64,000 bases of DNA, taken from the NCBI GenBank assembly GCA_020348925.1, contig CP070758.1:4649775-4713774 (forward strand), in the 5' to 3' direction. This DNA is from Gemmatimonadota bacterium (GTDB lineage Bacteria > JBHIER01 > G020348925). Below the pieces are notes generated by a model that ran no database searches, was not told the DNA's origin, and saw only the letters and a list, made by a program, of their open reading frames with translations. Made by a program: the position numbers and the translations under genes. Of the stretch, positions 10,591-33,449 are shown in pieces (within the stretch, counting starts at the first letter, position 1; every line of letters begins with the position of its first letter).

Positions 10591-10690
10591 NNNNNNNNNN
10601 NNNNNNNNNNNNNNNNNNNNNNNNNNNNNNNNNNNNNNNNNNNNNNNNNNNNNNNNNNNNNNNNNNNNNNNNNNNNNNNNNNNNNNNNNN
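10591..10690. other. Assembly gap (100 N)
   Basis: Run of N; both flanking genes are truncated. Confidence 1.
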
Positions 10691-12737: not shown

Positions 12738-12805
12738 GCTCAGGTCCTCACGGAACACCTCAACTATGTGCGGGACGCACTGACTGCCCCTTCAGAAAGA
12801 TAGTA

Positions 12806-15757: not shown

Positions 15758-15856
15758 TTCAACCTCCACTATGATATGTTACACAAAGAGCCTCACCCCG
15801 GAAGCCACAAAATTTCACGAACTCATACGGAGAGAGGTTCAATTCGAAAGGTTACC

Positions 15857-18800
15857 CTAATAAGAACACGCGCCACTCCCTAAGATCACATTAACAATCC
15901 CCACCACATCCAATATGTTCACCTGGCCGTCCCCCGTATAATCCGACGACCACAACTGGTATTCCGTCGGCCCTTCCCCACTCGCCAATATGATATGAAT
16001 CACCCAAACAACGTCCAAAATGTTCACCCTTCCAACCTCATTCACATCCCCAATCTGAGACTCAACCCCAAACCAATCCAATATTCGCCCCAACATCTCA
16101 GCGCGCATATGAGACACATTCGCCACATCATAAAACTCGATCAGCGACTCAAAGCCAACTGCAAAATATATAACCCTGTATCCACCCCTGTAACGAAGAG
16201 CCGCAGTTTCGCCGGAACCGTAATAGATGAGTATTGAGCTGGCGCCGTTGAGAGGTTCGATCACGTCCGGGCTGTCCTGATTGTCCGCGCCTAAGTCACC
16301 TGGACAGAGCGATAGCATATCGAGCTCACCGGTGATCGGATCCCCAGGCACGCTGTACAGCCATATGTCTTCACTCCGGTCGGCCAAAAACCTTACATGC
16401 AAATAGTTCCTCAGAAAGGGTGACTCGCGAAGATCAGCCGCAATGTTTTGGCCTGTCATGAACAAACCCCCACCGTTGTCGAGAAAAGTTTTGAGCCATT
16501 CTTGATCGGATGGAGTGAGTGTAGAGTCACATTCGTTTCCCGTAAACCAGATCACTGCCTCATAATTATAAATCAAAGACGTATCCAACATACCATCGCT
16601 CAACCTATCGTACAGATCACACCCGATACCCTCCATATCACAGGCCGCTTCGAAATATATTTCCAGAGAGTCCCCGCCATCGTCGTCAACGAGCAGAAAC
16701 GCCGACTGTCCCACGAGGACTTCGAACCGGAGAGTTGTACCGTAATAATCACCGTTTGAGAAGATGGAAAGGTGAAAGGATACATAATGATACGGCGTTT
16801 CATTGCTCAGACGAAACACAAAAGGGTCGATCCAGTTTGTGCAGGAAGAGTCTGCCTCCACTTCAGGAAAATCCGCAGAATCACTGAGAAGTGAAAGATA
16901 CTCATCTTCTGTCCTTAGCACTCCCCGTACATCGGTCGCTTGCCCACCACCAACATTCCGGAGCTGAATGCGCAGTTCCCACACCTCTCCTGCTTCGGGT
17001 CTGCCATCCCCATCACCCTCGACCTCGTTGAGAGTGCAAGTCTCATAGGTTATTATGGGTGCTACAACCTCAATGTTAAAAGCCGTCTTCGAACAGAACG
17101 ATCCCCAAATTGCTGTCACAACCTCAAAAGGTATTTCGTATCCGTGCTCACAGTCTGGAGCAACAGCAACAACAAAGGGGCCTTCGCTCACGGCCGTTTC
17201 TCTGGGAGGTAGGTCAGGAAAGGTTTGGATACTATCCTGGACACAAGCACTCGTATCGCTGCTTCTCAAAATCGCTGTCACGTCCTGAGCTGTACTCCCG
17301 CCAAGATTGAATAATCGGATGCTCAGCTCGATCACTTCGCCTATGTCGACGAGGCTATCCCCATCTCCGGTACTCAATCCAACAGAATCGTCGTCAAGAA
17401 TCACTTCGCACAGATTGGTATGAGGATTCGAGGGGAATTCTGTGTTGGTTGTGAACTTTATCGCCGAGTGATCTGATAACTCTTGGGCCCCAGGAACGTA
17501 TTGTCCGGCATAGGTGTACTCCAGACCGCCCTTCTTGTCCGGAGACTCAATCCCCACAGTGGCAAAATTCCCCGCATAATCACTGTTGCTCACCGCCCGA
17601 TACTGAAACACGATCTCTCCATCCCCCGTTGGTGTCGGATAATACTCGGGATCATAGAGTACGACCTGAAATGTCTCTTCTGCATCATCATAATCGTTGT
17701 AAATCCTGCTCCACTCCACAACAAATCTATGTTCCTGCTCATCATTGAAATATACGACACAACCATTCCCCATGTAGAGATCGTCCCAGAATGGGGCCAC
17801 GAGGCACGGCGGGTTGAGAACCGCCGGAATGGACCAATTCCTGAAATTTGTCATCCACGTTGCCCCAAAAGAAAGCCATCCATTCGAACAGACGGATACT
17901 TCATCGTAAGTATTCCCATAATAACGAAAGGCGAACGGCAAGGGCAATACTTCGGTATCCCCCTGAGGATAATTCTCCCCGGTATAATACCCAGGCTCAA
18001 TGTCATCGATGAGATTTAAAACAGCCCCAGCCCCCCCGTGGAGTGGATCGATTTCAATCCACTCATAATTGGGTCTGTCATAATAGCGCCAGTCGAAACT
18101 ATCGTAAGCGAAATATCCGTAGGAATCGGGGCCGGAAGGATCGGATGGGGTGGCAAGCCCAACTGTTACCGGTAACATTACTACGTCCCTCATCTCAGAA
18201 TTGCTCTCCACATACAGGGTGAAGTGCACTTGATGTCCGGGGAACATACTCTCATGGGCTGAGATGATGAAAGGATTTTCCGAATTATCACCCTGGCTTT
18301 CCATCATGATGGTTCCAAAGTCCGCTCTCGAATCGATGAGAACGATATTTGGATCGGAAGTCCTGAGTGTTGCTCGAACGTTTTTACCGACCTTTTTCCC
18401 CTCATTGGTTATCGTTACTACAAGGCTACCCGTTTCACCGGGATCGAGGCGGTTGGGAAGCAGTGTCTGGCTTGAATCTTCTATATGAAAAGAGTGCAGG
18501 GAGAAGTCAGGAGCCTCCACCGAGATATCCAAAAAGTCTTCCCAAAGAGTTCCACTCCCATCGACAATTTCTATGGTGCACGTTACTACATGTCCATCCG
18601 GGCAATCCGGGGTAATCGAAATGACGTACTCTTCTTGACCCGCAACATCACTTCCAGGTGGAATATCCCCAAAATTCGCTATGCTTTGATGCACAGCCCC
18701 GTATGAATCATCAACCGCTATCTCAGCAGAGACGGAGAAAGCCGTCCGGCTTACACCCGCATTCCTCAAAGAAAGTATCAATTCCATCGTTTCTCCCGGA

Positions 18801-20923
18801 TTGACTTTTCCATCGCCATCGCCCGAGCTTTCACCCAATGAATCGTCATCGATATGATGGTTTGAGAGGGAGACACAGACCGGGACTTCCTGACCGAGTA
18901 AAATTGTCTGGTAGGGTTTGAAATTGTGTTTCGTAACAGTCACCAAAACGGAATCATTCTCTCCCACGGAGACAGGCAGGGTGATTCTCCCATCCGGTTC
19001 TGTATATCCTCCGGAGAGGATCCGTCCACCTGCGGTTAGACAGACATACGCACCATCGACGGGGAGATTGTCAGAATTTTCAACTGTCATAAACAACTGG
19101 TTGGTCCCAACACCAATCACTGAGGGATGATCGACAAAAAGATTGTTGGGGATATCTGTCCACATCACCAGTCCCGGATCGCCGATCAAAGTGTATATAT
19201 AAAAATAACACTCTACGGAATTCCAGGTGTTTCCCGGACCCCTGTTGTGCGGATATTGCATATACAGCTCCATTTTCGCTCGGGCAAAAGCCTGACCCAC
19301 TGTAAACAGGGAATCGTCAAAGACACCGGCATAAAATCCAGCATCCAGGACATTATTATAATTTACAAAGGTAAACATCGATGTGGGACCGATGATAGCA
19401 ACGGCTCCTCTCGGAAAAGAAACCGTTCCGGCACGCAACCACGCTTCTGCCGGACAATCCTCATTAAAATCAGCAGCATTGCAGACCATATCTGTAACCA
19501 CGGGCAGCATGAACCCATTATGCAGACCATAGATGTTGTCAAGGTCAGCAGGAGTTTGATATGCAGACGTCCATCCACCCCAGTCCATCCAACCACGATA
19601 GTTGACAAAGGCGACTCCCGAGTTCACGACAGCCGAAATATATCCCACATCACATTCATACCCTGGAAAAGTAAAGGACGTATCCACCTGTGTAAAACCA
19701 TTATCCAGGAGTTTCTCTCTCACCCATAGTTTCAGTGTTCTCGTTGAAGCATTTCCTTCATAATTGCAGATCATGAGAGCTCTCTTGTACCAGTTGGTCC
19801 GCCCCATGTATGGATTCCTCTCATACGAGACAATCTTATTCGCAACCGTTCGCATCTCGTTGACGGAAGACACTGACAATCGCCCCACAAAGACATCCGG
19901 GAAATAGTCCTCACCCTCCAGCATACAATAAGGATGGTCAGCAGCCACCCATTCCAATCCATCATCATAATAAAAGGTTGGCATTTCATCGACATCACCG
20001 ACGAGAATGACATATTCAAGGGGAACGGAAGCAGACTCGTAATAATCCTGGATATAAATTCGTATCAGATTGTTACTCGGGTTCGAACCAATCCGCGACA
20101 GCTTCACCATTTCTGTATGATGCCCCTTCTGTCGCTTCCACTCCACCAGTGGTTCCAACGCTTCATAATAGGCATCAGGTGTAATAATGAGATACCCTCC
20201 CCTTACAACCTCCTGAGATGACGGCAGGGCAGTATAGTTTACTATCGAACTTCTGTAGAGCTTTTCAAAAGCTTCCGGTCTTCCAAGGCTCCGGCGTTTT
20301 GGTGTGGCTGAATTTTCGGACCGCTTATATGTCAGCTTCACAGTAAGCCTTCGACACACTTTCACCTCTTCACGAACGGGATTGTACTGCACAGGATGAA
20401 GAATAAGAGGAACAAGACAAAGGTCCCGAACCATCACCGCAGACCCAACCTCAGCAGCAGGTTCAGGATAGAACGCATCCTGGGCATAGAACTCTCGGCT
20501 CATGAGAAAAGGGCGCTCGTCTCTTTTCTCGGTCCGTTCCTCCTGATGCGGCCACATCCGTATGTCGCTCAGGATCGAAGAGTCACGAAGGTCTACCTCA
20601 ACATCCACGGAGACACCCGGCGGTACGGCCACCAACCTGGCCAGAACAGGCAGCTCCGGCCGACCGGCCTCGGTTCTCCACCCGGCCCGGGATAGGCGTA
20701 CCTTCTGGTACTTCTCGCCTCCTTCAAAGATATCCTCAATGACCGGCTCGGGAATCTCAAGAGCTATTTCGGTCCCACTGTTGTCCGAAGCCAACACCCG
20801 AAACTCCGGAACATCTCGCTCCAATAAAAATTCGGCCCTAGAACCCGCACTGAGAAAAAAGACCGTCCCTATGCACACAAGAATAAAATGTCTTCTTCGA
20901 AAAATCTCCTTGACTGTGATCAT
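15857..20923 (-). CDS. Gingipain-like C25 family protein, paralog 1 (propeptide, C25 domain, Ig-like modules, dockerin)
   Basis: Propeptide GRPELPV/PVQYNP; YLIITPD, WKRQKG, YVILVGD, DVFVGRLS, NKIVSYE, LIGDPG. C-terminal GDVNE...NILD duplicated Ca-binding loops. Confidence 0.9.
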   Translation of the reverse strand: MITVKEIFRRRHFILVCIGTVFFLSAGSRAEFLLERDVPEFRVLASDNSGTEIALEIPEPVIEDIFEGGEKYQKVRLSRAGWRTEAGRPELPVLARLVAVPPGVSVDVEVDLRDSSILSDIRMWPHQEERTEKRDERPFLMSREFYAQDAFYPEPAAEVGSAVMVRDLCLVPLILHPVQYNPVREEVKVCRRLTVKLTYKRSENSATPKRRSLGRPEAFEKLYRSSIVNYTALPSSQEVVRGGYLIITPDAYYEALEPLVEWKRQKGHHTEMVKLSRIGSNPSNNLIRIYIQDYYESASVPLEYVILVGDVDEMPTFYYDDGLEWVAADHPYCMLEGEDYFPDVFVGRLSVSSVNEMRTVANKIVSYERNPYMGRTNWYKRALMICNYEGNASTRTLKLWVREKLLDNGFTQVDTSFTFPGYECDVGYISAVVNSGVAFVNYRGWMDWGGWTSAYQTPADLDNIYGLHNGFMLPVVTDMVCNAADFNEDCPAEAWLRAGTVSFPRGAVAIIGPTSMFTFVNYNNVLDAGFYAGVFDDSLFTVGQAFARAKMELYMQYPHNRGPGNTWNSVECYFYIYTLIGDPGLVMWTDIPNNLFVDHPSVIGVGTNQLFMTVENSDNLPVDGAYVCLTAGGRILSGGYTEPDGRITLPVSVGENDSVLVTVTKHNFKPYQTILLGQEVPVCVSLSNHHIDDDSLGESSGDGDGKVNPGETMELILSLRNAGVSRTAFSVSAEIAVDDSYGAVHQSIANFGDIPPGSDVAGQEEYVISITPDCPDGHVVTCTIEIVDGSGTLWEDFLDISVEAPDFSLHSFHIEDSSQTLLPNRLDPGETGSLVVTITNEGKKVGKNVRATLRTSDPNIVLIDSRADFGTIMMESQGDNSENPFIISAHESMFPGHQVHFTLYVESNSEMRDVVMLPVTVGLATPSDPSGPDSYGYFAYDSFDWRYYDRPNYEWIEIDPLHGGAGAVLNLIDDIEPGYYTGENYPQGDTEVLPLPFAFRYYGNTYDEVSVCSNGWLSFGATWMTNFRNWSIPAVLNPPCLVAPFWDDLYMGNGCVVYFNDEQEHRFVVEWSRIYNDYDDAEETFQVVLYDPEYYPTPTGDGEIVFQYRAVSNSDYAGNFATVGIESPDKKGGLEYTYAGQYVPGAQELSDHSAIKFTTNTEFPSNPHTNLCEVILDDDSVGLSTGDGDSLVDIGEVIELSIRLFNLGGSTAQDVTAILRSSDTSACVQDSIQTFPDLPPRETAVSEGPFVVAVAPDCEHGYEIPFEVVTAIWGSFCSKTAFNIEVVAPIITYETCTLNEVEGDGDGRPEAGEVWELRIQLRNVGGGQATDVRGVLRTEDEYLSLLSDSADFPEVEADSSCTNWIDPFVFRLSNETPYHYVSFHLSIFSNGDYYGTTLRFEVLVGQSAFLLVDDDGGDSLEIYFEAACDMEGIGCDLYDRLSDGMLDTSLIYNYEAVIWFTGNECDSTLTPSDQEWLKTFLDNGGGLFMTGQNIAADLRESPFLRNYLHVRFLADRSEDIWLYSVPGDPITGELDMLSLCPGDLGADNQDSPDVIEPLNGASSILIYYGSGETAALRYRGGYRVIYFAVGFESLIEFYDVANVSHMRAEMLGRILDWFGVESQIGDVNEVGRVNILDVVWVIHIILASGEGPTEYQLWSSDYTGDGQVNILDVVGIVNVILGSGACSY

Positions 20924-23900
20924 CTCCTAATCCCCAGTATGACATTCACGATGCCCACCACATCCAGTATGTTCACCTGGCCGTCCCCGGTACAATCCGA
21001 GGCCCACACCTGATACTCCGTCGGATCACCCTCAATAGCCAGTATAATGTTGATCATCCTCACAATGTCCAAAATATTTACAGCCCCATCCTCATTCACA
21101 TCGCCAATCCGAGGCTCAACTTCAAACCAATCCAATATGCGCCCCAACATTTCAGACCGCATCGCATACGCATTGGCGACATCATAAAATTCTATCAGAG
21201 ACTCAAATCCAACAGCATAGTACACAAGCCCGTACCCATTTCGATACCGAAGCGCCGCCGGGTTCTCAGTGCCGTAATATGTGAGAAGAGGATTTGCACC
21301 CCCGAGAGGCTCGATCTCGTCCGGACTGTCCTGATTGTCCGCACCGTAATTACCGGTGGCAAGAGAGAGCAGCCCCAGATCGCCTGTGATCGGATTCCCC
21401 GCTACCCCCTCCACCCATATCACCCCGCTGCTGTCTGCCACAAGCTCGGCATGCATGTACTCCAACAAAAAGGATGAACCCGAAAGATCCGAAGCAATGT
21501 TCTGACCGCTCACAAACAGGTTTCCCCCCTCATCAAGATACGCCTCCAAACACTCCTGATCGAAAACTGTCAAGGTCGACTCCCGCTCACTCCCCGTAAA
21601 CCATATTATCGCCCAGTAATCTCGAAGCATTGATACCCCAGGCGCACCCTGAACCGACCTCTCATACACCTCATAACTCCTTCCCTGACGGTTCAACGCA
21701 TCCAGATAATACACCTCACACCCATCCCCCCCATCATCATCGACAAGCAGAATGTCCGCCCGCTCTATCACGATCTCAAAGCTGAGAACGGTAGAGTAAT
21801 GATTGCTATTCGAGGAGACAGACAAGTCGAAGGACCTGTTATGATACGGAGTCTCATCGTCGATACGAAAAAGAAACGGATCGTCCGAATTTTCACATGC
21901 TGCCTGCGGCGGGATGTTTAAAAAAGAGACAGTATCATTGAGAAGAGTCACATACGCATCATCTATCGTTAAGACAGCACTGACCCCTGTTGCTTGATCA
22001 CCACCAATATTTTGAAGATTGACATAGAACTCCCACGTTTCTCCTGATTCAATTCTGTCATCCTCATCGCCTTCGATAACATTCAGAGTGAAGGTTTCGT
22101 GGACGATGACCGGGGCAGCAACTTCAATGTCAAAATTCGTCAGTGAGCAGAACGATCCCCCCGTCCGTGTTTCCAATACAAAATCGATGGTGTGTCCGTC
22201 CTCACAAACAGTAGCAATTTCTATCACGAAAGGCCCTTCGCTTCGGGCCGTATCCCCGGGTGTGATATTGGGAAAGGACTTTAGGCTGTCTTGAACCGAT
22301 ACCTTGAGATCCGCACTCCGCAACAGAGCCGTAATTCCCTCGGCATTTTCCTGGCCGTGATTGATCACCCTGAGAGCCAGTTCAATCCTCTCCCCTGCGT
22401 CAACAATGCCATCTCCATCCCCGCTACTCCTCCCATAAGCATCGTCGTCCAAGTGGCAGCCATAATATCCGAGAGACGGACTTTCCGGTCGGTGTCTCCC
22501 CGTCTTAAACTTTATGGCCAGGCCATTGTGCAATTCCATCGCACCGGGGGCATATTGCCCGGCATAGGTATATCCCAAACCGCTCTGCTTGTCAGGCGAC
22601 GCAATCCCAACCGTGGCAAAATTCCACGCATAATCACTATTGTTCACTGTATGGTATTGAAAAAGAATCTCGCCATCCCCGGTATCACTCCGGTAATATG
22701 CCGGATCGAACAGAAAAACTTGAAAGGTTTCAAGAGCATCGTCATAATCGTTATGCACCCCGCTCCACTCCACACAAAACCTGTGTTTCGGTGCATCATA
22801 ATAATAAGTCACACTCCCATCCCCCACGTACAGATCATCCCAAAAGGGAGCGATAAGGCATGGTGGGTTGAGAACTGCCGGAATACCCCAGTTCCGAAAA
22901 TTGGTCATCCAGGTTGATCCCATGGAAAGCCATCCGTTCGAACATACGGAGATGGTGTCGTAACTCTGGCCGTAATACCGAAACGTGAAGGGAAGAGGTA
23001 ACACCTCGGTGTCTCCCTGAGGATGATCATAGAAGGTTGAATCCAGGCCCGGCTCATCGACAAAATTGAAAAGGGTACCTGAACCACCGAGGGAAGGATC
23101 GATTTCAAACCACTCGTAGAGGGGTTTTTCAAAATAGGACCAGTCGTTGGAATCAAAAGCGAAATAGCCGTAAGCATCAGGACCCACCGGATCCGATGAG
23201 GAAATATTTCCAATTGAGATCGATAGGACAATCTCGTCCCTCATTCCAACATTACTTTCCAATACGAGCACGAATTGTGCCCGGTGTCCGGAAAAGGTCA
23301 TCAGATCGGCTGAAATCAGGAAAGGATCATCGGAATTGGTCGCCTCAGTTCCTAAAGGCATATTTCCCCAGAAAGCTGTTGAATCGACGAGCGTGATATT
23401 TGAATCGATCGTTCTGAGCGTTGCCTCGACATTCTCTCCAGGTTTTCGTCCTTCATTGGCGATTGTCACCACAAGATGCGCCGTTTCACCGGGATCAAGT
23501 CGACCGTTCGGTAACACCTGATGTGCATCTTCAATCACTACTTCTTCAAGAGAAAACGCCGGGGCCGCCACACCTATTCTGAGAAAATCATTCCACTCGT
23601 TCCCATTACTATCGGTTGCTTCTAAAGATAAAACGAGCTCATGACCGTCCGGACAATCATGCCTGACTGAGAATACATAGTCACCCTGACCCCAAACAGA
23701 ATCTCCGGGTGAGATTGCACCGAACTGTACAAATTCCTCAAGCACAGTAGCGTATCTATCGTCAATTGCGAATGTTGCAGAGACTGAAAAAGCAGTTTCC
23801 CCTATACCCGAATTTTTCAACGAAAGACTCAATTCAACGGTCTCTCCGGGATTGAGCCTCCCATCACCATCCCCCGAACTGCCATCTGACGAATCGTCAT

Positions 23901-25998
23901 CGATCCGATAATCCGCAATTGAAACCACAACCTCCGCCCCCTCACCGCCAAGGACCGTTTGATACGGCTTGAAATTATGTTTCGTGACGGTTATCCTGAC
24001 AGAATCGCCGATCTCCACGGACTGAGGAAGCGCGATCCGACCATCACCCCCGGTAAATCCGCCGGAGAGTATCTCTCCGCCCCTCGTCAAACTAACGTAC
24101 GCATCGCTCACAGGACGATTCATCGAATCCTTGACTTTCAGGTCCAAAACATTCACCCCAGATTCGATAACCGACGGATGTTCAACTGTTAAGAGCCGGG
24201 GAATGTCGGTCCACATGTCAAGCCCGGGATCACCGATCAAGGTATACATATAAAAATAACACTCCACCGAGTTCCAGGCGTGACCTGGTCCTCGGTTCAA
24301 CGGGTACTGGTTGTACAGCTCCGTCTTGGCCCGGGCTAAAGCCTGGCCCACAGTGAAGAGGGAGTCGTCGAAAACCCCGGAATAAAATCCACCATCCAGG
24401 ACATTATTAAAGTATACTTTCGTATTGCTCGCCGTAGGCCCGACAATGGCTATTCCCCCCTTAGGATTCAGGGGCGTTCCGGCCCGCAGCCACCCCTCAG
24501 CAACACAGTCGAACAGATAAAAAGATGCCTGAGTACACGTCATATCAGTAATGACAGGCAGCATGAATCCGTTCTGCAACCTGTAGATGTTATAAAGATC
24601 AACATAGGAAGCCCACCCCCCCCACATTGCAATGCCGCGGTAGTTCACAAAGGAAACCCCTGAATTCAACACGGTTGAGATAAACCCCACATCACATTCG
24701 GACACTGAATACGTAAACGATGTATCAACCTGAACAAAGCCATTATCGAAGAGCTTGTCCCTCACCCACAGTTTCGTTGTTCTCGACGAAGCGTTCCCCT
24801 CAAAGTTACACACCATGAGCGCTCTCTTGTACCAATCCGTTTGTCCCATGTATGGCTCCCTCTCGTAGGAGACAATCTTGTTGACGACCGTCCGCACTTC
24901 TTTCAGTGATGAGACCGAAAGCCGCCCCACGAAGACATCCGGAAAATAATCGTCTCCCTCGAGCAGACTGTAGGGATGATCCGTTGCATCCCATGGCCAG
25001 GAAGGAAACAGCATTCCCTCCATCTCGTCATAATACAAAAAGGTCGGCATGTCATCGTCACCCACCAGAATAACATACTCAAGCGGAACGGAAGAACGTG
25101 TATAATAGTCCTGGATATAACTGCGAATATGCTCGTTCGTGGGCAATGACCCTGTCGCTTGAAAGGATCCTATCTGTGACAGCATAACGACCTCGGTGTG
25201 ATAACCCTTCTGCCGTTTCCACTCCGCCAGAGGCTGCAATGCTTCAAAATAGTAATCAGGAGTTATGATGAGATATCCACCCCGCTCAATTTCGTCTGCT
25301 GAAGACGAATCGTAATTCAATATTGAACTTCGAAACAGTTTTTCAAAAGCTTCGGATGTGCCAGGACTGTCATGATGTCTCCTCGAGCCACCATTTCCCA
25401 GAGGTCTCAATACCACAGTAATATTCCGATACACCCTCAACTCCTCTCGAAGAGGATTGTACTGGACAGGATGTACGATAAGCGGCACGACTTCAAGATC
25501 ACGAATCCTTATCGGAGACCCGACCTCTACCACTGACTCCGGATAAAAAGAATCCCGGGTGTATATCTCCTCATCCAATGTGAAAGTATGTTTCCCCTTC
25601 CTTTCAAGCTCCTCCCCTCGACTCGGCCAAACTCGTATGTCACTTGCGGTCGAATAATCACCAGACCTAACCTCCACATCCACGGCTACGCCTCGCGGGA
25701 CAGCCACCAACCTCGCCAGCACAGGCAATTCCGGACGACCGGCTTCAGTCCTCCAGCCAGTCCGGGATATGCGGACCTTCTGATAGATGTGTCCTTCCCC
25801 AACCACATCCTCAATGACCGGCTCAGGAATCTCAACCGAGATCTCAATCCCACCATTATCCGCGGCCAATACCCGAAACTCCGGAACATCGCTCTCCAAT
25901 AAAAATCCGGCCCGAGAACCCGTACTGGGGATGAGGGCGAAAACTGCGCCCCACAGCCATACGCTCACCCCTCGGCAGACTCGCTTCAATTCGAACAT
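20920..25998 (-). CDS. Gingipain-like C25 family protein, paralog 2 with dockerin
   Basis: Same motifs as paralog 1. Start moved to the ATG at 25998 (MFELKR, GGGAG RBS, signal peptide follows). Confidence 0.9.
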   Translation of the reverse strand: MFELKRVCRGVSVWLWGAVFALIPSTGSRAGFLLESDVPEFRVLAADNGGIEISVEIPEPVIEDVVGEGHIYQKVRISRTGWRTEAGRPELPVLARLVAVPRGVAVDVEVRSGDYSTASDIRVWPSRGEELERKGKHTFTLDEEIYTRDSFYPESVVEVGSPIRIRDLEVVPLIVHPVQYNPLREELRVYRNITVVLRPLGNGGSRRHHDSPGTSEAFEKLFRSSILNYDSSSADEIERGGYLIITPDYYFEALQPLAEWKRQKGYHTEVVMLSQIGSFQATGSLPTNEHIRSYIQDYYTRSSVPLEYVILVGDDDMPTFLYYDEMEGMLFPSWPWDATDHPYSLLEGDDYFPDVFVGRLSVSSLKEVRTVVNKIVSYEREPYMGQTDWYKRALMVCNFEGNASSRTTKLWVRDKLFDNGFVQVDTSFTYSVSECDVGFISTVLNSGVSFVNYRGIAMWGGWASYVDLYNIYRLQNGFMLPVITDMTCTQASFYLFDCVAEGWLRAGTPLNPKGGIAIVGPTASNTKVYFNNVLDGGFYSGVFDDSLFTVGQALARAKTELYNQYPLNRGPGHAWNSVECYFYMYTLIGDPGLDMWTDIPRLLTVEHPSVIESGVNVLDLKVKDSMNRPVSDAYVSLTRGGEILSGGFTGGDGRIALPQSVEIGDSVRITVTKHNFKPYQTVLGGEGAEVVVSIADYRIDDDSSDGSSGDGDGRLNPGETVELSLSLKNSGIGETAFSVSATFAIDDRYATVLEEFVQFGAISPGDSVWGQGDYVFSVRHDCPDGHELVLSLEATDSNGNEWNDFLRIGVAAPAFSLEEVVIEDAHQVLPNGRLDPGETAHLVVTIANEGRKPGENVEATLRTIDSNITLVDSTAFWGNMPLGTEATNSDDPFLISADLMTFSGHRAQFVLVLESNVGMRDEIVLSISIGNISSSDPVGPDAYGYFAFDSNDWSYFEKPLYEWFEIDPSLGGSGTLFNFVDEPGLDSTFYDHPQGDTEVLPLPFTFRYYGQSYDTISVCSNGWLSMGSTWMTNFRNWGIPAVLNPPCLIAPFWDDLYVGDGSVTYYYDAPKHRFCVEWSGVHNDYDDALETFQVFLFDPAYYRSDTGDGEILFQYHTVNNSDYAWNFATVGIASPDKQSGLGYTYAGQYAPGAMELHNGLAIKFKTGRHRPESPSLGYYGCHLDDDAYGRSSGDGDGIVDAGERIELALRVINHGQENAEGITALLRSADLKVSVQDSLKSFPNITPGDTARSEGPFVIEIATVCEDGHTIDFVLETRTGGSFCSLTNFDIEVAAPVIVHETFTLNVIEGDEDDRIESGETWEFYVNLQNIGGDQATGVSAVLTIDDAYVTLLNDTVSFLNIPPQAACENSDDPFLFRIDDETPYHNRSFDLSVSSNSNHYSTVLSFEIVIERADILLVDDDGGDGCEVYYLDALNRQGRSYEVYERSVQGAPGVSMLRDYWAIIWFTGSERESTLTVFDQECLEAYLDEGGNLFVSGQNIASDLSGSSFLLEYMHAELVADSSGVIWVEGVAGNPITGDLGLLSLATGNYGADNQDSPDEIEPLGGANPLLTYYGTENPAALRYRNGYGLVYYAVGFESLIEFYDVANAYAMRSEMLGRILDWFEVEPRIGDVNEDGAVNILDIVRMINIILAIEGDPTEYQVWASDCTGDGQVNILDVVGIVNVILGIRR

Positions 25999-28900
25999 GA
26001 GCCAACTCCCAAGATAACATTCACGATCCCCACCACATCCAATACATCCACACCACCATCCCCATTGCAATCCGATGCCCACATGTGATATTCCGTCGGA
26101 TTTGATTCAAGGGTCAAAATGATGTTGACCGTCTTTACGATATCCAAAATATTCACCGCACCATCCTCATTCACATCCCCCACCTGGGGCTCAAAACGAA
26201 ACCAGTTGAGGATCCGCCGGAGCATATCGACCCTCAAGGCATCGCCGCCGGCCACATCGTAGAAATCGACGATCGATTCAAATCCCACGGCGAAATAGAC
26301 TACCCTGTAGTCGTTGAGATATCGAAGAGCCGCGCTGTAGTCTGACTGGAAGTATTTGAAAATGGGGCATGCTCCTTCCAGAGGCTGAACCGCATCAGGA
26401 CTGTTCTGGTTGTTCGCACCATAGTCTCCGCTGGCCAGGGACAGCAGACCGTAGGTGCCTGTGATGGGATCTCCGGCCGCCCCATTCATCAAATTATTAC
26501 CGCTGCTGTCAGCGACAAATTCGGCACGCACATAATCCCTCAGGAACGCCGACGCCCGTAAATCGGAAGCGATGTTTTGTCCGCTTAAAAAGAGGCTGCC
26601 GCCGTTGTCGAGAAAGAGACCGAGCCACAGCTGATCTGCGGGTGTGAGCGTTGAATCGCGCTGGTTCCCCGTAAACCAGATGACGGTCTCATATTCGTCA
26701 ACCAGCGAGGGATCGAGTGGACCCCCTCTCAACCTGTCATGATACCTGAAAATCGGGTCCAAGACATCCAGTGGATCCGTGTAGAATTGCTTGATGAATC
26801 CCCCACCGTCACTATTGACAAGCAGAATATTCTCCCTTCCGACTTCGAGCTCAAAGCGAACGACGGTTTCGTACCGGCCATTATTGGAGTCCAGGGACAG
26901 ATCGAAGGAGGCATGATGGTACGGGGTCTCCTCGCTCAGGGTGAAGACAAAGGGTCCGGCTGCATTCGTGCAGACCGCATGGACCCCAGCTTCCGGGAAG
27001 AGGGCGGTATCCTCAATGAGGGTGATATGCACATCCTCTGTGGACAATACACCCCAAATATCCGTCGCCTCTTCATCACCTATATTCTGGAGGCTGATCT
27101 GCAACTCGCAGGTCTCCCCTGACTCGACCCTGCTATCCCCATCACCGAAACTTACCCCGACACTGTCATCGTCTGCGACACAACCGTAGAAATTAAGATA
27201 CGGCCCTTGAGGAAGAGGCTTCCCGGTAGTAAACTTTATCGATAGGCCGTCCCTCAGGTCGCCCGCCCCAGGAGCGTTTTGCCCGGCATAGGTATACTCC
27301 ACGCCGCTTTTTTTGCCCGGAGCCTCTATACCCACTGTGGCATAGTTAAAGGCATAATCACTATTCTTCACCGTATGATACTGAAAGAGGATCTCGCCGT
27401 CACCGGAAACCGTTTGATGAAATGAAGGATCATAGAGGATGACCTGAAAGGTCTCAGGGGCATCGTCATAGTCATTGAACACCCTGCTCCACTCCACAAC
27501 AAACCTGTGCCCTGGCGCATCATAATAATAGGCCACATGCCCATCGCCCATATACAGATCATCCCAGAACGGAGCGATCAGACACGGCGGGCTGAGGGTC
27601 GCCGGAATGGACCAGTTCCGAAAGTTCGTCATCCATGTCGATCCCATGGAGAGCCAACCGTTCGAGCATACGGCGATCCGGTCGTACGTTCCGCCATAAA
27701 AGACAAAGGAGAAAGGCAGCGGCAGTACCTCCGTATCTCCCTGAGGATAGTAAGGGATATATCCCCACGGTGGTCCGGGTGGCGGTGCTGGTTCATCGAC
27801 AAGACTCACAAGGGTTCCGGAACCACCGTAAGACGGATCGATTTCAACCCACTCGTATTGGGGGCTGTCGTAATAGCGCAGGTCGCTGTTATCGTATGCG
27901 AAATATCCGTAGGAATCCGGTCCTGTGGGATCTGCTGATGTCTGGGTTCCCACGGTCAACGACAGGATTTCCGTATCCATCATCCCTGAATTGCTCTCCA
28001 GATGCAGGGAAAATTGAGCCTGATGTCCGAAGAACATGATCGGATCGGCTGAGATGACGAAGGGGTCATTCGAATGATCAGCCTGACCTCCTCTGGGGAT
28101 GAACCCGAAGTCGGCCGTTGAATCGAGCACGGCGATATCCGGGTCAGTTGCTCTGAGTGTTGCGTGCGTGTTATTTCCGGCTTTTCCTCCCTCGTTGTTG
28201 AGGGTCACGGTGAGTCGAACAGTCTCGCCAGGATCGAGCTGGCCATTGGGTAGTGCTTGGTCGGAATCCGCAATCATGAGGTTCCCGAGAGAAAAGTCCG
28301 GGGCTTCCACCAACACCTCCACAACGTCGCTCCAGAAAGAACCATCTCCATCAGTGATCTTTACGGAAAAAGCAAGCTCATGCCCGTCGGGACAATCCGG
28401 AGAGACTGCAAGAACAAACGCCTCCTGACCCCACACTGTCTGCGCCGGTGAAATGCTCCCAAAACTCGCCACGCCCTCACTAACAGCGACATAGGGATCA
28501 TCGCTCGCGATCTCTGCAGTCACCGAGGAGGCCGTCTGGCTTGTGCCCACATTCCGGAGGGACAGAGCCAATTCAATTATCTCACCGGGGTTGACAGTAC
28601 CATCACCGTCACCCAAACTTTGGTCGGACGAATCGTCATCGATGAGGCGGTCCGAGAGGGCAACACAAACCGGTGCTTGCTCGGCAGGGATGAGGGCTTG
28701 ATAGGGTTTGAAGTTATGCTTCGTAACGGTTGCGGTAACGATGTCGTCTGCCCCGACGGGGAGGGGCAGACGAACCTTCCCGTCCGATCCGGTGAACCCT
28801 CCGGAGAGAATGTGCCCCTCCCCGGTCAGACAGACATACGCACCACGAATGGGCTGTTGGCCACCATCTTCAACCGTTAGACTGATCTGATTGGAGCCGA

Positions 28901-30707
28901 CCGCAATTTTCGAGGGATGTTCCACATGAAAAGACTGAGGGCTATCCGTCCACATCTCAAGTCCGGGATCCCCCATCAAGGTGTACATGTAAAAGTAGCA
29001 TTCCACTGAATTGTGGGCGTGACCAGGGCCTCTGTTGAGCGGGTACTGCATGTAGAGCTCCATTTTGGCCCGGGCCAGAGCCTGGCCCGGGGTAGAGAGG
29101 GAATCGTCAAAGACCCCAGCATAAAAGCCCCCATCCAGAGCGTTGTTGAAATACCCTTTCGTATTGATCGCCGTGGGGCCCATGACGGCCACAGCCCCTC
29201 TCGGGCTGAGGACCGACCCGGCCCGCAGCCACGCCTCCGCCGGACAGTTGAAATAAAAGGCCGCAGACCGGCAGACAAAATCGGTGATCACCGGAAGCAT
29301 AAATCCGTTGTTGAGCGCGTCAATATTATTGTAGTTATCCGGTGAGGTCCATCCGCCCCAATCCAGCTCCCCACGATAATTGATATATGACACCCCTGAA
29401 TTTATTACAGAGGAAATGAACCCGACATCACAATCCAGCATATTGAATGTGAACGACGTATCAACCTGCGTGAAGCCGTTATCCAGCATCTTCTCCCCGA
29501 TCCAGAGGTTTATCGTTCTGGCGGATGCAATGCCTCCATAGTTGCACACCAGGAGGGCGCTCTTATACCACTCTGTCTGTCCCACATACGGGTCCCGTTC
29601 ATAGGATACGATTTTATTCACAACCGTGTGCATCTCGTTCACGGAGGAGACGGAGAGCCGTCCCACAAACACGTCCGGAAAATAATCATCCCCATCCAGC
29701 ATGCTGTATGGATGATCGGCGGCATCCCACGGGCCGAGGGGGCTGTAGTTCTCTTCCATTTCATCGTAATAGAAAAAGGTCGGGAGTTCCGCAACATCGC
29801 CTACGAGAACCACGTACTCGAGGGGTACTGCAGATTGCGCGTAATAATTCATTATATAATTTCGAATTTCATCATTATCAGGATTCGCCCCTATCTGCGA
29901 CAACCTCACCACTTCCGTATGATGCCCTTTCTGCCGCTTCCACTCAACGAGAGGCTGCAAAGCCTCATAATAGATGTCAGGCGTGACGATGAGGTATCCT
30001 CCCCGGACGAGCTCCTGAGATGACGAGGGGGCATGATAATTCAAAACCGAACTCCGATAGAACTTCTCAAAGGCTTCCGGAATTGCTGTGTTCGAGACAT
30101 GTCCTCCTTGAACGTGCACCTTGACTCTGAGACTCCTCACGATCTTCAACTCCCCCCGAACCGGGTTATACTGAACGGGATGAATGATGAGGGGAATGAC
30201 ACACAGATCCCGAATCCTGAACGGAGAGCCAACCTCTACAACCGAATCCGGATAAAAAGAATCCCGCCCGTATACTTCCTCGTTCATTATGAAAGAACTC
30301 CCGATCCTCTTATCTACCCGCTCCTCTTGACAGGGCCACAACCGGATATCGCTCCGGACCGAGTATTCGCGCTCACGCACCTCGACATCCGCAGGGATTC
30401 CTCGCGGGACTGCCACCAGCCTGGCAAGAACAGGCAACTCCGGACAACCGGCCTCATTGCTCCAACCAGCCTCGGCTATGCGTATCTTTCGATAGGTTCG
30501 CCCGCCTTCAACGACATCCTCAATCAACGGTTCAGGAACCACAATCGATATCTCAGTCCCCGCACCCTCCGAAACCAGTACATGAAATTCCGGAACATCG
30601 CTCTCCCGAAACAATTCAGCCCAGGAACCCACACTGAGAAGAAATACCCCCACGACGCTGATAAGAATGCAATGCCTTTTCCGACAGACGCCCTTTAATC
30701 CGCACAT
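25986..30707 (-). CDS. Gingipain-like C25 family protein, paralog 3 with dockerin (one Ig-like module shorter)
   Basis: Same motif set; 1573 aa. Confidence 0.9.
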   Translation of the reverse strand: MCGLKGVCRKRHCILISVVGVFLLSVGSWAELFRESDVPEFHVLVSEGAGTEISIVVPEPLIEDVVEGGRTYRKIRIAEAGWSNEAGCPELPVLARLVAVPRGIPADVEVREREYSVRSDIRLWPCQEERVDKRIGSSFIMNEEVYGRDSFYPDSVVEVGSPFRIRDLCVIPLIIHPVQYNPVRGELKIVRSLRVKVHVQGGHVSNTAIPEAFEKFYRSSVLNYHAPSSSQELVRGGYLIVTPDIYYEALQPLVEWKRQKGHHTEVVRLSQIGANPDNDEIRNYIMNYYAQSAVPLEYVVLVGDVAELPTFFYYDEMEENYSPLGPWDAADHPYSMLDGDDYFPDVFVGRLSVSSVNEMHTVVNKIVSYERDPYVGQTEWYKSALLVCNYGGIASARTINLWIGEKMLDNGFTQVDTSFTFNMLDCDVGFISSVINSGVSYINYRGELDWGGWTSPDNYNNIDALNNGFMLPVITDFVCRSAAFYFNCPAEAWLRAGSVLSPRGAVAVMGPTAINTKGYFNNALDGGFYAGVFDDSLSTPGQALARAKMELYMQYPLNRGPGHAHNSVECYFYMYTLMGDPGLEMWTDSPQSFHVEHPSKIAVGSNQISLTVEDGGQQPIRGAYVCLTGEGHILSGGFTGSDGKVRLPLPVGADDIVTATVTKHNFKPYQALIPAEQAPVCVALSDRLIDDDSSDQSLGDGDGTVNPGEIIELALSLRNVGTSQTASSVTAEIASDDPYVAVSEGVASFGSISPAQTVWGQEAFVLAVSPDCPDGHELAFSVKITDGDGSFWSDVVEVLVEAPDFSLGNLMIADSDQALPNGQLDPGETVRLTVTLNNEGGKAGNNTHATLRATDPDIAVLDSTADFGFIPRGGQADHSNDPFVISADPIMFFGHQAQFSLHLESNSGMMDTEILSLTVGTQTSADPTGPDSYGYFAYDNSDLRYYDSPQYEWVEIDPSYGGSGTLVSLVDEPAPPPGPPWGYIPYYPQGDTEVLPLPFSFVFYGGTYDRIAVCSNGWLSMGSTWMTNFRNWSIPATLSPPCLIAPFWDDLYMGDGHVAYYYDAPGHRFVVEWSRVFNDYDDAPETFQVILYDPSFHQTVSGDGEILFQYHTVKNSDYAFNYATVGIEAPGKKSGVEYTYAGQNAPGAGDLRDGLSIKFTTGKPLPQGPYLNFYGCVADDDSVGVSFGDGDSRVESGETCELQISLQNIGDEEATDIWGVLSTEDVHITLIEDTALFPEAGVHAVCTNAAGPFVFTLSEETPYHHASFDLSLDSNNGRYETVVRFELEVGRENILLVNSDGGGFIKQFYTDPLDVLDPIFRYHDRLRGGPLDPSLVDEYETVIWFTGNQRDSTLTPADQLWLGLFLDNGGSLFLSGQNIASDLRASAFLRDYVRAEFVADSSGNNLMNGAAGDPITGTYGLLSLASGDYGANNQNSPDAVQPLEGACPIFKYFQSDYSAALRYLNDYRVVYFAVGFESIVDFYDVAGGDALRVDMLRRILNWFRFEPQVGDVNEDGAVNILDIVKTVNIILTLESNPTEYHMWASDCNGDGGVDVLDVVGIVNVILGVGSCSN

Positions 30708-33349
30708 GTACCAACTCCCAAGATAACATTCACAATACCCACGACATCCAGGATATTCACCTGACTATCCCCGGTGCAATCCGACGTCCACACCTGATAC
30801 TCCGTCGGATCCTCCTCAATAGCCAGTATGATGTTGATTACTCGCACGATGTCCAATATGTTTATCGCTCCGTCCTCATTCGCATCTCCAATTTGAGGCT
30901 CAACTTCGAACCAATGCAATATCCGTCCCAACATCTCGGCACGCATGGCAAAGGCGTTGGCCACATTATAAAACTCGAGCACCGATTCAAATCCAAACGC
31001 ATAATAGACAACCCTGTACTCCCCTGTGTAGCGAAGAGCCGCGACATCACCGGTACCATAATACGTAAAGACAGGAGTCGATCCTGCCACACACACAACC
31101 TCATCCGGGCTATCCTGATTGTTCGCTCCGTAGTCCCCACTGGCCAATGACAGCAAATCATACCCTCCTGAGATCGGATCACCTGATACCCCTTCAACCC
31201 ATATCACCTCACTGTTGTCGGCCCCAAACTCAGCATGCAAAAACTCCCCTAAAAACGATGTGCCCGTGAGATCAGAGGCGATGTTCTGACCACTCACAAA
31301 CAGGTTTCCGCCGGCATTACAATACTCCCTCAAACCCTCCTGATCAGAAACCGTCAACGTCGACTCTCGCTCAGCCCCCGTGAACCATATCACCCCCCAG
31401 TAATCGCCAAGTACCGAAATACTCAGCTCGCCCTCAGCCAGCCTGTCGTATACCTCATAACTTCTCCCCTGACCATCCAAAGCACTCATATAGTAAACCT
31501 CGCACCCTTCTCCACCGTCATCATCCACAAGCAACAGATCCGGGCGCCCAACCACAAGCTCACCACTGAGCACGGTGGTATAAAAATCATTGTTGGCAAA
31601 CAGAGACAGCTCGAGAGAAACGGGATGATACGACGCCCCGGCCCCGACACTGAACACAAAGGGACTCGACTCGTTGGTCCGTGCAGAATCGGCAGCCATG
31701 TCCGGAAAGTCCGCCGCCTCTTCAATGATGGTCAAATACTCATCATCCGTCGACACTATTCCCCACACATCGATCGCCTGACCGCCGCCGACGTTCTCAA
31801 GGGTGACGACCAATTCCCACGTCTCCCCGGATTCAGGTCTGTCATCCCCGTCACCCTGAACCTCTGTGAGCGAACCGTCCGCAACGACGAGAGTGGGGGC
31901 AACCACTTCGAGATCGAGATAGGTGTACGCGGGAGGTACTCCAGATATGTGCGTCTCCAGCGCAAACTCGATGATGTGTCCATTCTCGCAATCCCCAGCA
32001 ATCGAAACAATATAAGGCTCTTCACCAAAAGCCGCATCCCCGGGGGCAATATTCGGAAAACTCCGCACACCGCTCTCAATCGTCACGCTGGCATCCGAAG
32101 TTCCCAATTCGGCCGTCACTCCCTGGGCCTCCTCCTCTCCAAAGTTGATCAATCGCAGGCGCAACGCAACCCGCTCGCCTGCATCCACCAATCCATCACC
32201 ATCACCGGAACTTCCGCCCATGCCATCATCGTTCATCTGCAAATCATAGTAGTTCAAATACGGTCCTTCCGGCAAGAGACGACCCGTCGTAAACCTGATC
32301 GCCGTACCATCCTCCAATTCCCTCGCCCCCGGTGAATACAAGCCAGTGTAAGTATATTCCACCCCTCCCCTTTTATCCGGCGACTCGATACCCACAGTGG
32401 CAAAATTCCAGGCGTAATCACTGTTGCTCACTTCATGATACTGGAACAGGATCTCACCATCGCCGGTGACCGTCGGATAATGGGCAGGATCGTGCAAGAT
32501 CACCTCGAAGGTCTCCACCGCATCGTCATAATCGTTGTACACACGGCTCCACTCCACGACAAACCTGTGCCCGGACGCATCGTAATAAAAGGCCACGTTC
32601 CCGTCACCCATGTACAAATCATCCCAGAAAGGGGCAATAATGTTCGGCGGACTGAGCACCGCCGGCAGGGACCAGTTCCGAAAGTCCGTCATCCACGTCG
32701 CCCCCATGGAGAGCCATCCGTTTGAACAGACGGAAATCTCATCGTAGGTACCTCCATAATAGCGAAAGGTGAAGGGCAAATCCAGCACCTCCGTATCACC
32801 TTGATAATAATCGGCCCAATCCCCTTGTTCAGGCAGCGGTTCATCAACGAAGCTCAATACGGTCCCGGAGCCACCATACTCAGGATCTATCTCGAACCAC
32901 GCGTAGGCAGGACGATCGTAGTAGCGCCAGTCCCCGTTATCGTACGCCATATATCCGTAGGAATCCGGCCCCGTGGGATCCGAGGGGGATGGAACACCAA
33001 CGGGCAGAGAAAAGGTCTGTGTATCCCGCATCCCCGAATCGCTCTCGAGATACAGGGTGAATTGAGCTTGATGTCCCGAATACGTTCTGAGATTTGCGGA
33101 GACGATAAAAGGATCATCCCCATTCGATCCGTGGGACCCGATGGAAATTGATCCGAAGTCCGCAGCGTGATCGATGAGATCAATATCTGGGTCGGACGTA
33201 CTCAGGATCCCCCGGATATTTTCTCCATCCTTGTCCCCCTCATTCCGAAGAGTCATCACCAACTGAACTGTCTCACCGGGATCGAGCAGGCCGTTGGGGG
33301 ACATCTGATCGGAATCTTCTATCTGAACGTCCGACTGAACAAAATCCGG
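30695..33349 (-). CDS. Gingipain-like paralog 4, C-terminal half with dockerin (5' part lost in the gap)
   Basis: Frame is open to the gap (PDFVQSDVQIEDSDQMSPNGLLDPGE) and collinear with the C-terminal halves of paralogs 1-3. Its C25 domain is not visible. Confidence 0.85.
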   Translation of the reverse strand, partial: PDFVQSDVQIEDSDQMSPNGLLDPGETVQLVMTLRNEGDKDGENIRGILSTSDPDIDLIDHAADFGSISIGSHGSNGDDPFIVSANLRTYSGHQAQFTLYLESDSGMRDTQTFSLPVGVPSPSDPTGPDSYGYMAYDNGDWRYYDRPAYAWFEIDPEYGGSGTVLSFVDEPLPEQGDWADYYQGDTEVLDLPFTFRYYGGTYDEISVCSNGWLSMGATWMTDFRNWSLPAVLSPPNIIAPFWDDLYMGDGNVAFYYDASGHRFVVEWSRVYNDYDDAVETFEVILHDPAHYPTVTGDGEILFQYHEVSNSDYAWNFATVGIESPDKRGGVEYTYTGLYSPGARELEDGTAIRFTTGRLLPEGPYLNYYDLQMNDDGMGGSSGDGDGLVDAGERVALRLRLINFGEEEAQGVTAELGTSDASVTIESGVRSFPNIAPGDAAFGEEPYIVSIAGDCENGHIIEFALETHISGVPPAYTYLDLEVVAPTLVVADGSLTEVQGDGDDRPESGETWELVVTLENVGGGQAIDVWGIVSTDDEYLTIIEEAADFPDMAADSARTNESSPFVFSVGAGASYHPVSLELSLFANNDFYTTVLSGELVVGRPDLLLVDDDGGEGCEVYYMSALDGQGRSYEVYDRLAEGELSISVLGDYWGVIWFTGAERESTLTVSDQEGLREYCNAGGNLFVSGQNIASDLTGTSFLGEFLHAEFGADNSEVIWVEGVSGDPISGGYDLLSLASGDYGANNQDSPDEVVCVAGSTPVFTYYGTGDVAALRYTGEYRVVYYAFGFESVLEFYNVANAFAMRAEMLGRILHWFEVEPQIGDANEDGAINILDIVRVINIILAIEEDPTEYQVWTSDCTGDSQVNILDVVGIVNVILGVGTCAD

Positions 33350-33449
33350 NNNNNNNNNNNNNNNNNNNNNNNNNNNNNNNNNNNNNNNNNNNNNNNNNNN
33401 NNNNNNNNNNNNNNNNNNNNNNNNNNNNNNNNNNNNNNNNNNNNNNNNN
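33350..33449. other. Assembly gap (100 N)
   Basis: Run of N; flanking genes are truncated and on opposite strands. Confidence 1.

Follow-up and report, generated by a model that had tools for sequence, protein, structure and literature searches.

Three adjacent open reading frames (ORFs) in the genome of a Gemmatimonadota bacterium encode domains of the gingipain family (C25) in which the catalytic His is replaced and the catalytic Cys is kept. They lie in a stretch of 64,000 nucleotides (contig CP070758.1 of GenBank assembly GCA_020348925.1, positions 4,649,775 to 4,713,774), which is called the window and to which all positions below refer. Judged by their sequences, the three proteins belong to a large His-less branch of the gingipain fold that is monophyletic and is named the crown clade here. 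They are tentatively read as Cys-dependent domains with a rebuilt, cationic pocket and not as gingipain-type His/Cys endopeptidases, a reading whose chances are put slightly below even. The ORFs are all co-oriented, and a prodomain and a Peptidase_C25 domain are encoded in each:

15857-20923, minus strand: P0001, ORF of 1688 amino acids (aa)
20920-26082, minus strand: P0002, 1720 aa, with a GTG start
25986-30707, minus strand: P0003, 1573 aa, with a shorter middle part than P0001 and otherwise like architecture

The register of the two active-site motifs was taken from HMMER alignments against PDB chains. P0001 matched the gingipain RgpB with an E-value of 7e-31, and its segments 'vnyrgwmdwggw' and 'tdmvcnaadf' were placed on 'anytghgsetaw' and 'fdvacvngdf' of RgpB with top posterior probability. 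Kgp was matched as well, the printed motifs being 'anytahg' and 'igncc'. RgpB His211 corresponds to W445, I484 and E447 and RgpB Cys244 to C481, C516 and C479 in P0001, P0002 and P0003, respectively. The preliminary description of this DNA had reported three C25 paralogues without the catalytic His and with the Cys, and this is confirmed. Its motif positions were right within 4 nt, and since the alignment spans both motifs, the register that it had assumed is correct and the misregister against NYTGHG that it had allowed for is ruled out. The motifs are located as follows:

19586-19603, minus strand: NYRGWM of P0001, with Arg443 at 19595-19597, Trp445 (the RgpB His211 site) at 19589-19591 and Met446 at the Gly212 site
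24628-24645, minus strand: NYRGIA of P0002, with Arg482, and Ile484 at the His site
29364-29381, minus strand: NYRGEL of P0003, with Arg445, and Glu447 at the His site
19478-19492, minus strand: DMVC(N) of P0001, with Cys481 at 19481-19483, equivalent to RgpB Cys244
24532-24546, minus strand: DMTC(T) of P0002, with Cys516 at 24535-24537; Lys555 follows at 24418-24420
29268-29282, minus strand: DFVC(R) of P0003, with Cys479 at 29271-29273; Lys517 follows at 29157-29159

The G-H-G motif of C25 enzymes is therefore absent from all three proteins, the Gly after the His being replaced by Met, Ala and Leu. The acidic S1 residue Asp163 of RgpB is also missing in P0001, where a Trp is aligned to it. 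RgpB Glu152, which we take to be the third residue that orients the catalytic His, corresponds to E389 in P0001, E428 in P0002 and G391 in P0003, and this site is variable across the crown clade.

Pfam Peptidase_C25 (PF01364) was found in P0001, P0002 and P0003 with E-values of 6.4e-58, 1.3e-57 and 1.1e-58, covering positions 1-373 of the 374 of the profile, and Propeptide_C25 (PF08126) in all three with E-values of 8e-21 to 3e-22:

19166..20194, minus strand: Peptidase_C25 of P0001, residues 244-586 (Pfam, AlphaFold2/Foldseek)
24217..25275, minus strand: Peptidase_C25 of P0002, residues 270-622 (Pfam)
28956..29996, minus strand: Peptidase_C25 of P0003, residues 238-584 (Pfam)
20231..20809, minus strand: Propeptide_C25 of P0001, residues 39-231 (Pfam, phmmer, Foldseek)

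With phmmer, the prodomain of P0001 matched those of Kgp and RgpB (E 9e-12 and 4e-10). An AlphaFold2 model of P0001 residues 30-680, built on a 65-row alignment, had a predicted local distance difference test value (pLDDT) of 91.5 and a predicted template modelling score (pTM) of 0.93. Foldseek placed this model on RgpB with a TMt of 0.89 for 1cvr (E 1.4e-30) and 0.90 for 4ief_B at root-mean-square deviations (rmsd) of 2.8-3.4, on Kgp with a TMt of 0.81 and on the RgpB prodomain (4ief_A) with a TMt of 0.84. RgpB and Kgp of Porphyromonas gingivalis (MEROPS C25, clan CD; 1cvr, 4ief, 4rbm, 6i9a) are alike in the prodomain, the two-subdomain catalytic fold, the C-terminal Ig-like domain and the position of the catalytic Cys. 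The window proteins differ from RgpB in His211 (W/I/E), Gly212 (M/A/L), Thr209 (an invariant Arg) and the Trp284 lid (F/K).

The same state was found in a large number of homologues. With a word-index search, 490 proteins were retrieved at E < 1e-10, the best 120 of which were used. An exhaustive search of 1.84 billion representatives of a 50%-identity library returned 9737 at E < 1e-3 and 1025 at E < 1e-30, and the best 150 of the 1025 were used. The pooled survey of 264 rows takes in the host genome's own paralogues, with P0002 counted twice (P0002 and P0004). The Arg two residues before the His site, which the preliminary description had called invariant, was present in 263 of the 264 rows, the remaining one (P0238) being a fragment from which the site is missing. 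The Cys was present in 262 rows, with Gly in its place in P0179. Only 2 rows, P0115 among them, had His at the old site. The Arg-Gly-x signature with the retained Cys (263/264 homologues) thus recurs far beyond chance, while sequence identity in the surveyed clade drops to about 31-35%. A second homologue search, seeded with P0115 that carries both the Arg and the His, added 74 further proteins. The suggested survey for a clade with NYRGx was thereby answered positively: the 337 pooled domains comprise 268 of the crown clade (Arg, no His), 59 with Arg and His, 4 with His but no Arg, 5 that lack the Cys (4 being partial) and 1 other. Position 445 (P0001 numbering), the old His site, is occupied by 17 different residues in the crown clade, mostly W (93), F (47), Y (40), A (19), I (15) and L (11). 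Among 13 close relatives with at least 58% identity, it ranks 12th in variability among 383 columns and lies inside the invariant NYRG...WGGW.

The crown sequences stem from sediment metagenomes, with KSB1, WOR-3, Cloacimonetes, Marinimicrobia and Zixibacteria among the named sources. Within the host genome, 11 full C25 domains were counted. Six paralogues (L004-L009) read N-Y-R-G-x with W, F, E, W, I and V as x; L001 (PorU-like), L002, L003 and L010 keep the His, and L011 was not assigned to either group. A hidden Markov model (HMM) of the crown clade scored 486-538 bits on the six paralogues and at most 184 bits on every sampled His-bearing C25 domain. In five genomes from other phyla that were selected for a similar rpoB, 13 of 14 C25 rows had the His, the last one (L112) having neither His nor Arg. 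The sole crown-like C25 match in the sister genome, L099 (G001:C489:314-1372), reads R-G-S at the site and is interrupted by one in-frame TGA; a defective copy or the edge of a contig may be the reason. L005 (G000:C1:3733107-3736376; P0009, 1024 aa) has its 3' end cut by a scaffold gap, and its short length is thus not biological. A scan of the genome contigs for related loci, in which the single C25 domain served as query, found no relative.

That the His-less state could be an artefact or a sign of decay, arising from chimeras of paralogues, sequencing errors in the motifs or drifting pseudogenes, is hardly credible. Such concern is nourished by the host genome, whose 5.04-Mb scaffold is interrupted by 205 gaps of 100 N and in which one neighbouring 'fusion' ORF proved to be a gap artefact. 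However, the three ORFs of 1573-1720 codons are intact and free of these gaps, and the same state occurs in hundreds of independent metagenome proteins. The His-site codons TGG, ATT and GAG are each at least two substitutions away from CAY, so that single-base errors are not the cause. Public sediment-metagenome contigs cover the region at ~99% identity, some stretches being uncovered in three of the public read or contig sets compared. One contig from a second study (19503-19871) runs across the P0001 site and has 2 differences among the differences listed, none of them in the motif codons. In the contig comparison, a joint going back from 30707 to 20942 is probably due to dockerin similarity between the upstream gene and P0002 and not to a rearrangement. 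No RNA data set carrying the 1.1-kb C25 stretch was found among public runs.

The origin of the clade was examined with two approximate-likelihood trees with chosen rooting. In a FastTree phylogeny of 97 sequences, the Arg-bearing set was monophyletic (SH-like support 0.92) with P0171 and P0115 at its base. The second tree comprised 157 sequences and 368 columns, the 8 diagnostic columns being masked, and took the PorU-like group as its root. It contained 70 crown rows drawn at random, others included by choice, and 56 of the 59 Arg+His rows, with L099 and the six own L-loci left out. The crown clade was again monophyletic (0.84) and had as its sister (0.94) an Arg+His clade of 50 tips in the state E-R-H-Y-D-E, and an 'HRDHG' Arg+His group was placed more basally than this clade. 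P0171, a metagenome protein of 3975 aa, contains three C25-like stretches, the best of which has H-R-D-H-G (Arg and His) and lies near the base of the Arg-bearing clade. The Arg+His sister lineages amount to 59 proteins, mostly of WOR-3. By parsimony, the Arg was probably gained in an enzyme still bearing the His, and the His was then lost once, at the base of the crown clade. An independent degeneration of the three window paralogues is contradicted by these trees. Since the sisters carry the Arg together with the canonical His, the Arg predates the loss of the His. Arg-assisted catalysis, as the preliminary description had considered it, would therefore be a later co-option at best, and the Arg did not originate as a substitute for the His.

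The loss of the His was accompanied by further replacements, which lie in P0001 partly in two short segments:

19352..19369, minus strand: S1-lid loop of P0001, from Phe519 (the RgpB Trp284 position) to Asn523-Asn524, with a moderately confident register
19199..19207, minus strand: Tyr573-Phe574-Tyr575 of P0001, position 573 being Tyr in the crown clade and Glu in the His-bearing sisters

Position 524 is Asp in all 59 sisters and Asn in 252 of the 268 crown domains; position 573 is Glu in 52 sisters and Tyr in 236 crown domains. At position 389, the RgpB Glu152 site, 46 of the 59 sisters have Glu, whereas the crown clade is variable (Y 103, S 31, T 19, W 19 and others). The S1-lid position 519 is Tyr in 57 sisters, whereas the crown clade has mostly His (149), Lys (~55) or Ser (~36). 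Lys519 is the consensus of the close subclade of the window proteins (13 sequences). These sisters ('YRGHG' type, e.g. P0115 and P0266-P0318, annotated as 'C25 family cysteine peptidase') are the nearest relatives outside the crown clade. They share with it the architecture class of prodomain, C25 and FlgD-Ig/T9SS (type IX secretion system), the invariant Arg and the Cys, but unlike it they keep His445 along with the acidic residues and the Tyr lid. Given that this canonical-looking site is complete, the sisters are probably true proteases.

The core residues G309-D310, D329, R348, K363, Y367, G436, N469, C481, E493, K550 and G581-D582-P583 are retained in the crown clade as in canonical C25 domains, and Y367-E368 is also common to the window proteins and RgpB/Kgp. 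By this conservation, scaffold and Cys are under selection. Arg443, Asn523, Asn524, Tyr573 and Cys481 are conserved clade-wide, and positions 445, 519 and 575 vary. The diversified pockets proposed in the preliminary description thus hold for the latter three positions and do not extend to the five fixed residues. The charge of the site would have shifted from acidic or neutral to cationic, apparently leaving Arg443 unpaired. The Arg position is held by Thr209 in RgpB and by Thr442 in Kgp. A docking study on Kgp (6I9A) lists ligand contacts to Thr442 at the Arg position, Asp516, Asn475 and Trp513 (PMC13266019), which hints, if weakly, that the side chain of the Arg reaches into S1. A clan CD review gives the RgpB dyad and the S1 contacts Asp163, Gly210, Gly212, Gln282 and Trp284; it prints His221 for RgpB, and the chain numbering in the alignment gives 211 (PMC4357240).

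The domain was searched for a substitute His, such as the preliminary description had considered for another loop. The best His column of the crown clade reached 66%, namely His330 (D-H-P-Y) with 177 of 268 crown domains. His519 was found in 149 crown domains and none of the 59 sisters, and His575 in 107 crown domains and 1 sister. At least one of the latter two is present in 189 crown domains and both in 67. An aromatic residue now stands at 445 and a His where the aromatic lid used to be, as if the two had traded places, and many crown members could contain a migrated catalytic His. For the window proteins, it is very improbable that they are ordinary His/Cys proteases with a His of another segment in the dyad position. 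The frequencies of His519 and His575 in the crown clade speak for such a solution in other members, but no candidate His exists at either position in the window proteins, which have F519/Y575 in P0001 (the single Phe at 519 among 268), K555/Y611 in P0002 and K517/Y573 in P0003. His330, the sole widely shared His near them, is found in 18 of the 59 sisters too and is replaced by Leu in many members. Furthermore, no His is common to all three proteins between the old His site and the Cys. The idea of a His from another loop is thus partly borne out for the clade and fails for the three window proteins.

The favoured reading of Cys-dependent domains with a cationic pocket starts from the conservation of the Cys. 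Its presence in 262 of 264 rows at ~31-35% identity argues that the thiol is in use, as there is no equally conserved disulfide partner (the candidate C490 is conserved at just 81%) and there are no equally conserved metal ligands (H519 in 56% and H575 in 40% of the crown clade). With the acid/base set dismantled, the activity is argued not to be gingipain-type amide hydrolysis. As suggested by the alignment to RgpB/Kgp and co-variation, Arg443, Asn523, Asn524, Tyr573 and Cys481 would line a single pocket at the former S1/catalytic site. This cationic pocket could take an anionic group such as an Asp/Glu carboxylate, a peptide C-terminus or an acidic glycan, with the Cys as nucleophile or covalent-capture residue. 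Positions 445 (W/I/E) and 519 (F/K/K) may tune what each of the tandem paralogues accepts. Given the signal peptide, the type I dockerin and the many cohesins of the genome, the proteins would probably be located on a surface scaffold, beside the M14 carboxypeptidase of the same gene row.

A bolder version extends this to the whole clade and is rather doubtful: the crown clade might represent a new kind of Cys-dependent enzyme or covalent-capture adhesin on the gingipain scaffold, with a preference for anionic substrates, for example acidic polysaccharides or the acidic ends of peptides. The Arg would have entered the S1 pocket first, and the His-Glu machinery would then have been discarded. 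The catalytic partner would next have moved to the S1-lid loop (His519 in ~56% and Lys519 in ~21%, including two window proteins). The aromatic lid would have shifted to the old His site and the pocket would have become cationic. Such an enzyme would not be an Arg/Lys-specific endopeptidase, and the tandem paralogues would form a specificity panel set by 445 and 519.

Several points weigh against a Cys-dependent activity of the window proteins. The His/Cys dyad is common to all characterised clan CD peptidases according to PMC4357240, and no assay of any crown member was found in the literature. The crown clade has no universal replacement acid/base, with a Phe at 519 in P0001. The residue following the old His site is Gly or Ala in 230 of the 268 crown domains, and Met, Ala or Leu in the subclade of the window proteins, in which the stretch after the Cys also departs from the Gly-rich consensus of the clade. 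The register of loop 514-524 against RgpB has a moderate posterior probability, and the proximity of Arg443, Asn524 and Tyr573 to Cys481 would follow from the alignment to RgpB/Kgp together with co-variation. The joint loss of His445, Glu389, Asp524 and Glu573 looks like a loss of proteolysis.

A non-catalytic pseudo-protease is a real possibility and a serious competitor. The domain would have kept the substrate cleft of gingipains to bind a ligand (peptide, protein or glycan) and would present it on the dockerin-cohesin scaffold; the Cys would be kept as part of the binding surface or the fold, and positions 445 and 519 would set the ligand preference of each paralogue. The four residues were lost together at the base of the crown clade, the old His site is hypervariable, the top His column does not exceed 66%, and P0001 is hydrophobic at both 445 and 519. 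The long tail of CARDB-like, NIDO-like, nucleophile-less GATase1-like and dockerin parts fits a display or adhesion protein, and the canonical His-bearing paralogues L001, L002, L003 and L010 in the same genome are available for proteolysis. With the His, a residue that is essential in all characterised relatives has been lost, as is typical of a pseudo-enzyme; the His/Cys dyad is described as common to clan CD in PMC4357240. Simple inactivity is, on the other hand, at odds with the persistence of the Cys across so divergent lineages. The replacements N524 and Y573 are themselves strongly conserved, and a prodomain of the zymogen type is still present. Known pseudo-variants of Cys proteases have in most cases lost the nucleophile, which also speaks against this explanation. 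Bacterial pseudo-orthocaspases (clan CD, C14) offer a comparison: according to PMC6426788, their His and Cys are replaced by Tyr and Ser, and they likewise form a conserved, widespread lineage that gave up the canonical dyad. They lose both dyad residues, whereas the crown C25 domains lose the His and its acidic partners and keep the Cys.

Transpeptidation had been proposed as well. A PorU-like sortase or transpeptidase would cleave a C-terminal signal and ligate the cargo to a surface polymer. PorU (6za2, NF033707) is a C25-family Cys enzyme of the same superphylum, the host genome contains the PorU-like L001 and at least 150 matches to the T9SS C-terminal domain (150 of 246 scored), and many crown members of other phyla bear a T9SS sorting domain. 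The NCBIfam matches of the three window proteins are weak, however, with 33, 58.3 and 36.5 bits for PorU against a cut-off of 420 and 30.1, 38.3 and 34.5 bits for PorU2 (NF052324) against a cut-off of 450, and the proposal is not upheld by them. L001 keeps the canonical G-H-G, is without the Arg and has another domain order: the prodomain directly precedes C25 in the window proteins, whereas C25 is preceded by ~630 residues in L001. Foldseek matched the model to PorU (6za2_B) with a TMq of only 0.27 and an E-value of 1.5e-10, compared with 1e-30 for RgpB. Six paralogues per genome are also unlike a single-copy secretion component. No match for PorU His657/Cys690 was found in the literature. 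Taken together, a function of this kind is improbable for the window proteins.

P0001 is organised, from the N-terminus, as signal peptide, Propeptide_C25, His-less C25, Ig-like domain, CARDB-like sandwiches, NIDO-like region, GATase1/ThuA-like domain and type I dockerin, and P0002 has the same architecture. A signal-peptide-like N-terminus is present in each of the three proteins, and so is a C-terminal type I dockerin (PF00404, E 2e-6 to 3e-10). The NIDO-like stretch between C25 and dockerin was only weakly matched. No T9SS C-terminal domain follows the dockerin in P0001. This tail differs from that of the gingipains, in which haemagglutinin/adhesin domains or a T9SS C-terminal domain are found. 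The last two domains of P0001 are:

16055..16714, minus strand: GATase1/ThuA-like domain, approx. residues 1404-1623, model-based fold match
15902..16051, minus strand: type I dockerin, residues 1625-1674 (Pfam)

The ~220-residue domain before the dockerin belongs to no Pfam family. Its model (pLDDT 78) was GATase1/ThuA-like with a VIA Z of 17.8 and an rmsd of 2.8 over 193 aligned residues for 2gk3_A, and a Z of 16.8 for 3rht_A. The nucleophile-elbow position is without a Cys. Counterparts of this domain are present in P0002 and P0003, and GH42 glycosidases, PelA and Agd3 also contain domains of this kind.

The gene row on the minus strand comprises an 869-aa dockerin protein, P0003, P0002, P0001, a 987-aa protein and an M14 carboxypeptidase with dockerin, followed by a scaffold gap. 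Beyond this gap, the row goes on with the 3' end of tuf, tRNA-Trp, secE, nusG, rplKAJL, rpoB and rpoC. The database entry of P0002 (P0004, 1692 aa) begins at an internal Met at approx. 25998, 28 codons downstream; provided that P0002 starts there, consecutive ORFs overlap by 4 to 13 nt. The end of the P0002 ORF overlaps the start of P0001 by 4 nt, and the upstream 869-aa ORF (30695-33304) overlaps the start of P0003 by 13 nt. A PDB sequence search with the flanking ORFs of 987 aa (12806-15769, minus strand) and 869 aa (30695-33304, minus strand) gave dockerin and one weak match only. Dockerin is the sole Pfam feature of the 869-aa ORF, and the 987-aa ORF has a sub-threshold GH43-like match. 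A 766-aa ORF (10458-12758, minus strand) was considered as a fusion of M14 carboxypeptidase and EF-Tu and rejected. It contains M14, CarboxypepD_reg, a MAM-like part and the start of a dockerin, followed by the last 42 residues of EF-Tu, and since it runs across the 100-N gap at 10591-10690, the fusion is an artefact. The tuf gene is collapsed at this gap, and a second identical tuf 3' end was found at G000:C1:4191362-4191487. Another protein of 308 aa (33682-34608, minus strand) combines an N-terminal dockerin with a Fibrobacter succinogenes major domain (PF09603, E 5e-56), and a second 100-N scaffold gap (33350-33449) lies just downstream of its gene.

Cohesin is matched 81 times in the host genome and dockerin at least 148 times (150 of 527 candidates scored). 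This docking repertoire is very large for a 5-Mb genome. Some frames have a dockerin followed by a T9SS domain, whereas the C25 trio has the dockerin alone. The host phylum is represented by two species genomes in the GTDB set used, and rpoB identity to the nearest named genomes (Ignavibacteria-labelled, Zixibacteria, KSB1 and Gemmatimonadota metagenome-assembled genomes) is 60-65%.

A search of the literature at the level of titles and abstracts, with supplements not covered, found no description of His-less C25 proteins. The C25 fold and family are already known; to our knowledge, neither the rebuilding of the site across the clade nor its stepwise origin nor the possible migration of the His has been described. 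According to PMC6752024, gingipain-like C25 genes make up 41-45% of the signal-peptide-bearing peptidase genes in White Oak River sediments and were tied to the hydrolysis of Arg-containing fluorogenic substrates. C25 genes are taken as Arg-specific extracellular endopeptidases in carbon-cycling studies of sediments and anoxic waters (PMC6752024, PMC8359207). Proteins of the crown clade are thereby routinely counted as ordinary proteases. Should they have a function other than Arg-specific proteolysis, the protein-degrading potential inferred for such communities would be mis-assigned in part. The crown clade can be regarded as a dated, stepwise natural experiment, in which an Arg was gained, His, Glu, Asp and Glu were replaced and the Cys was kept, and it informs how the active site of a clan CD enzyme gets dismantled or re-purposed.

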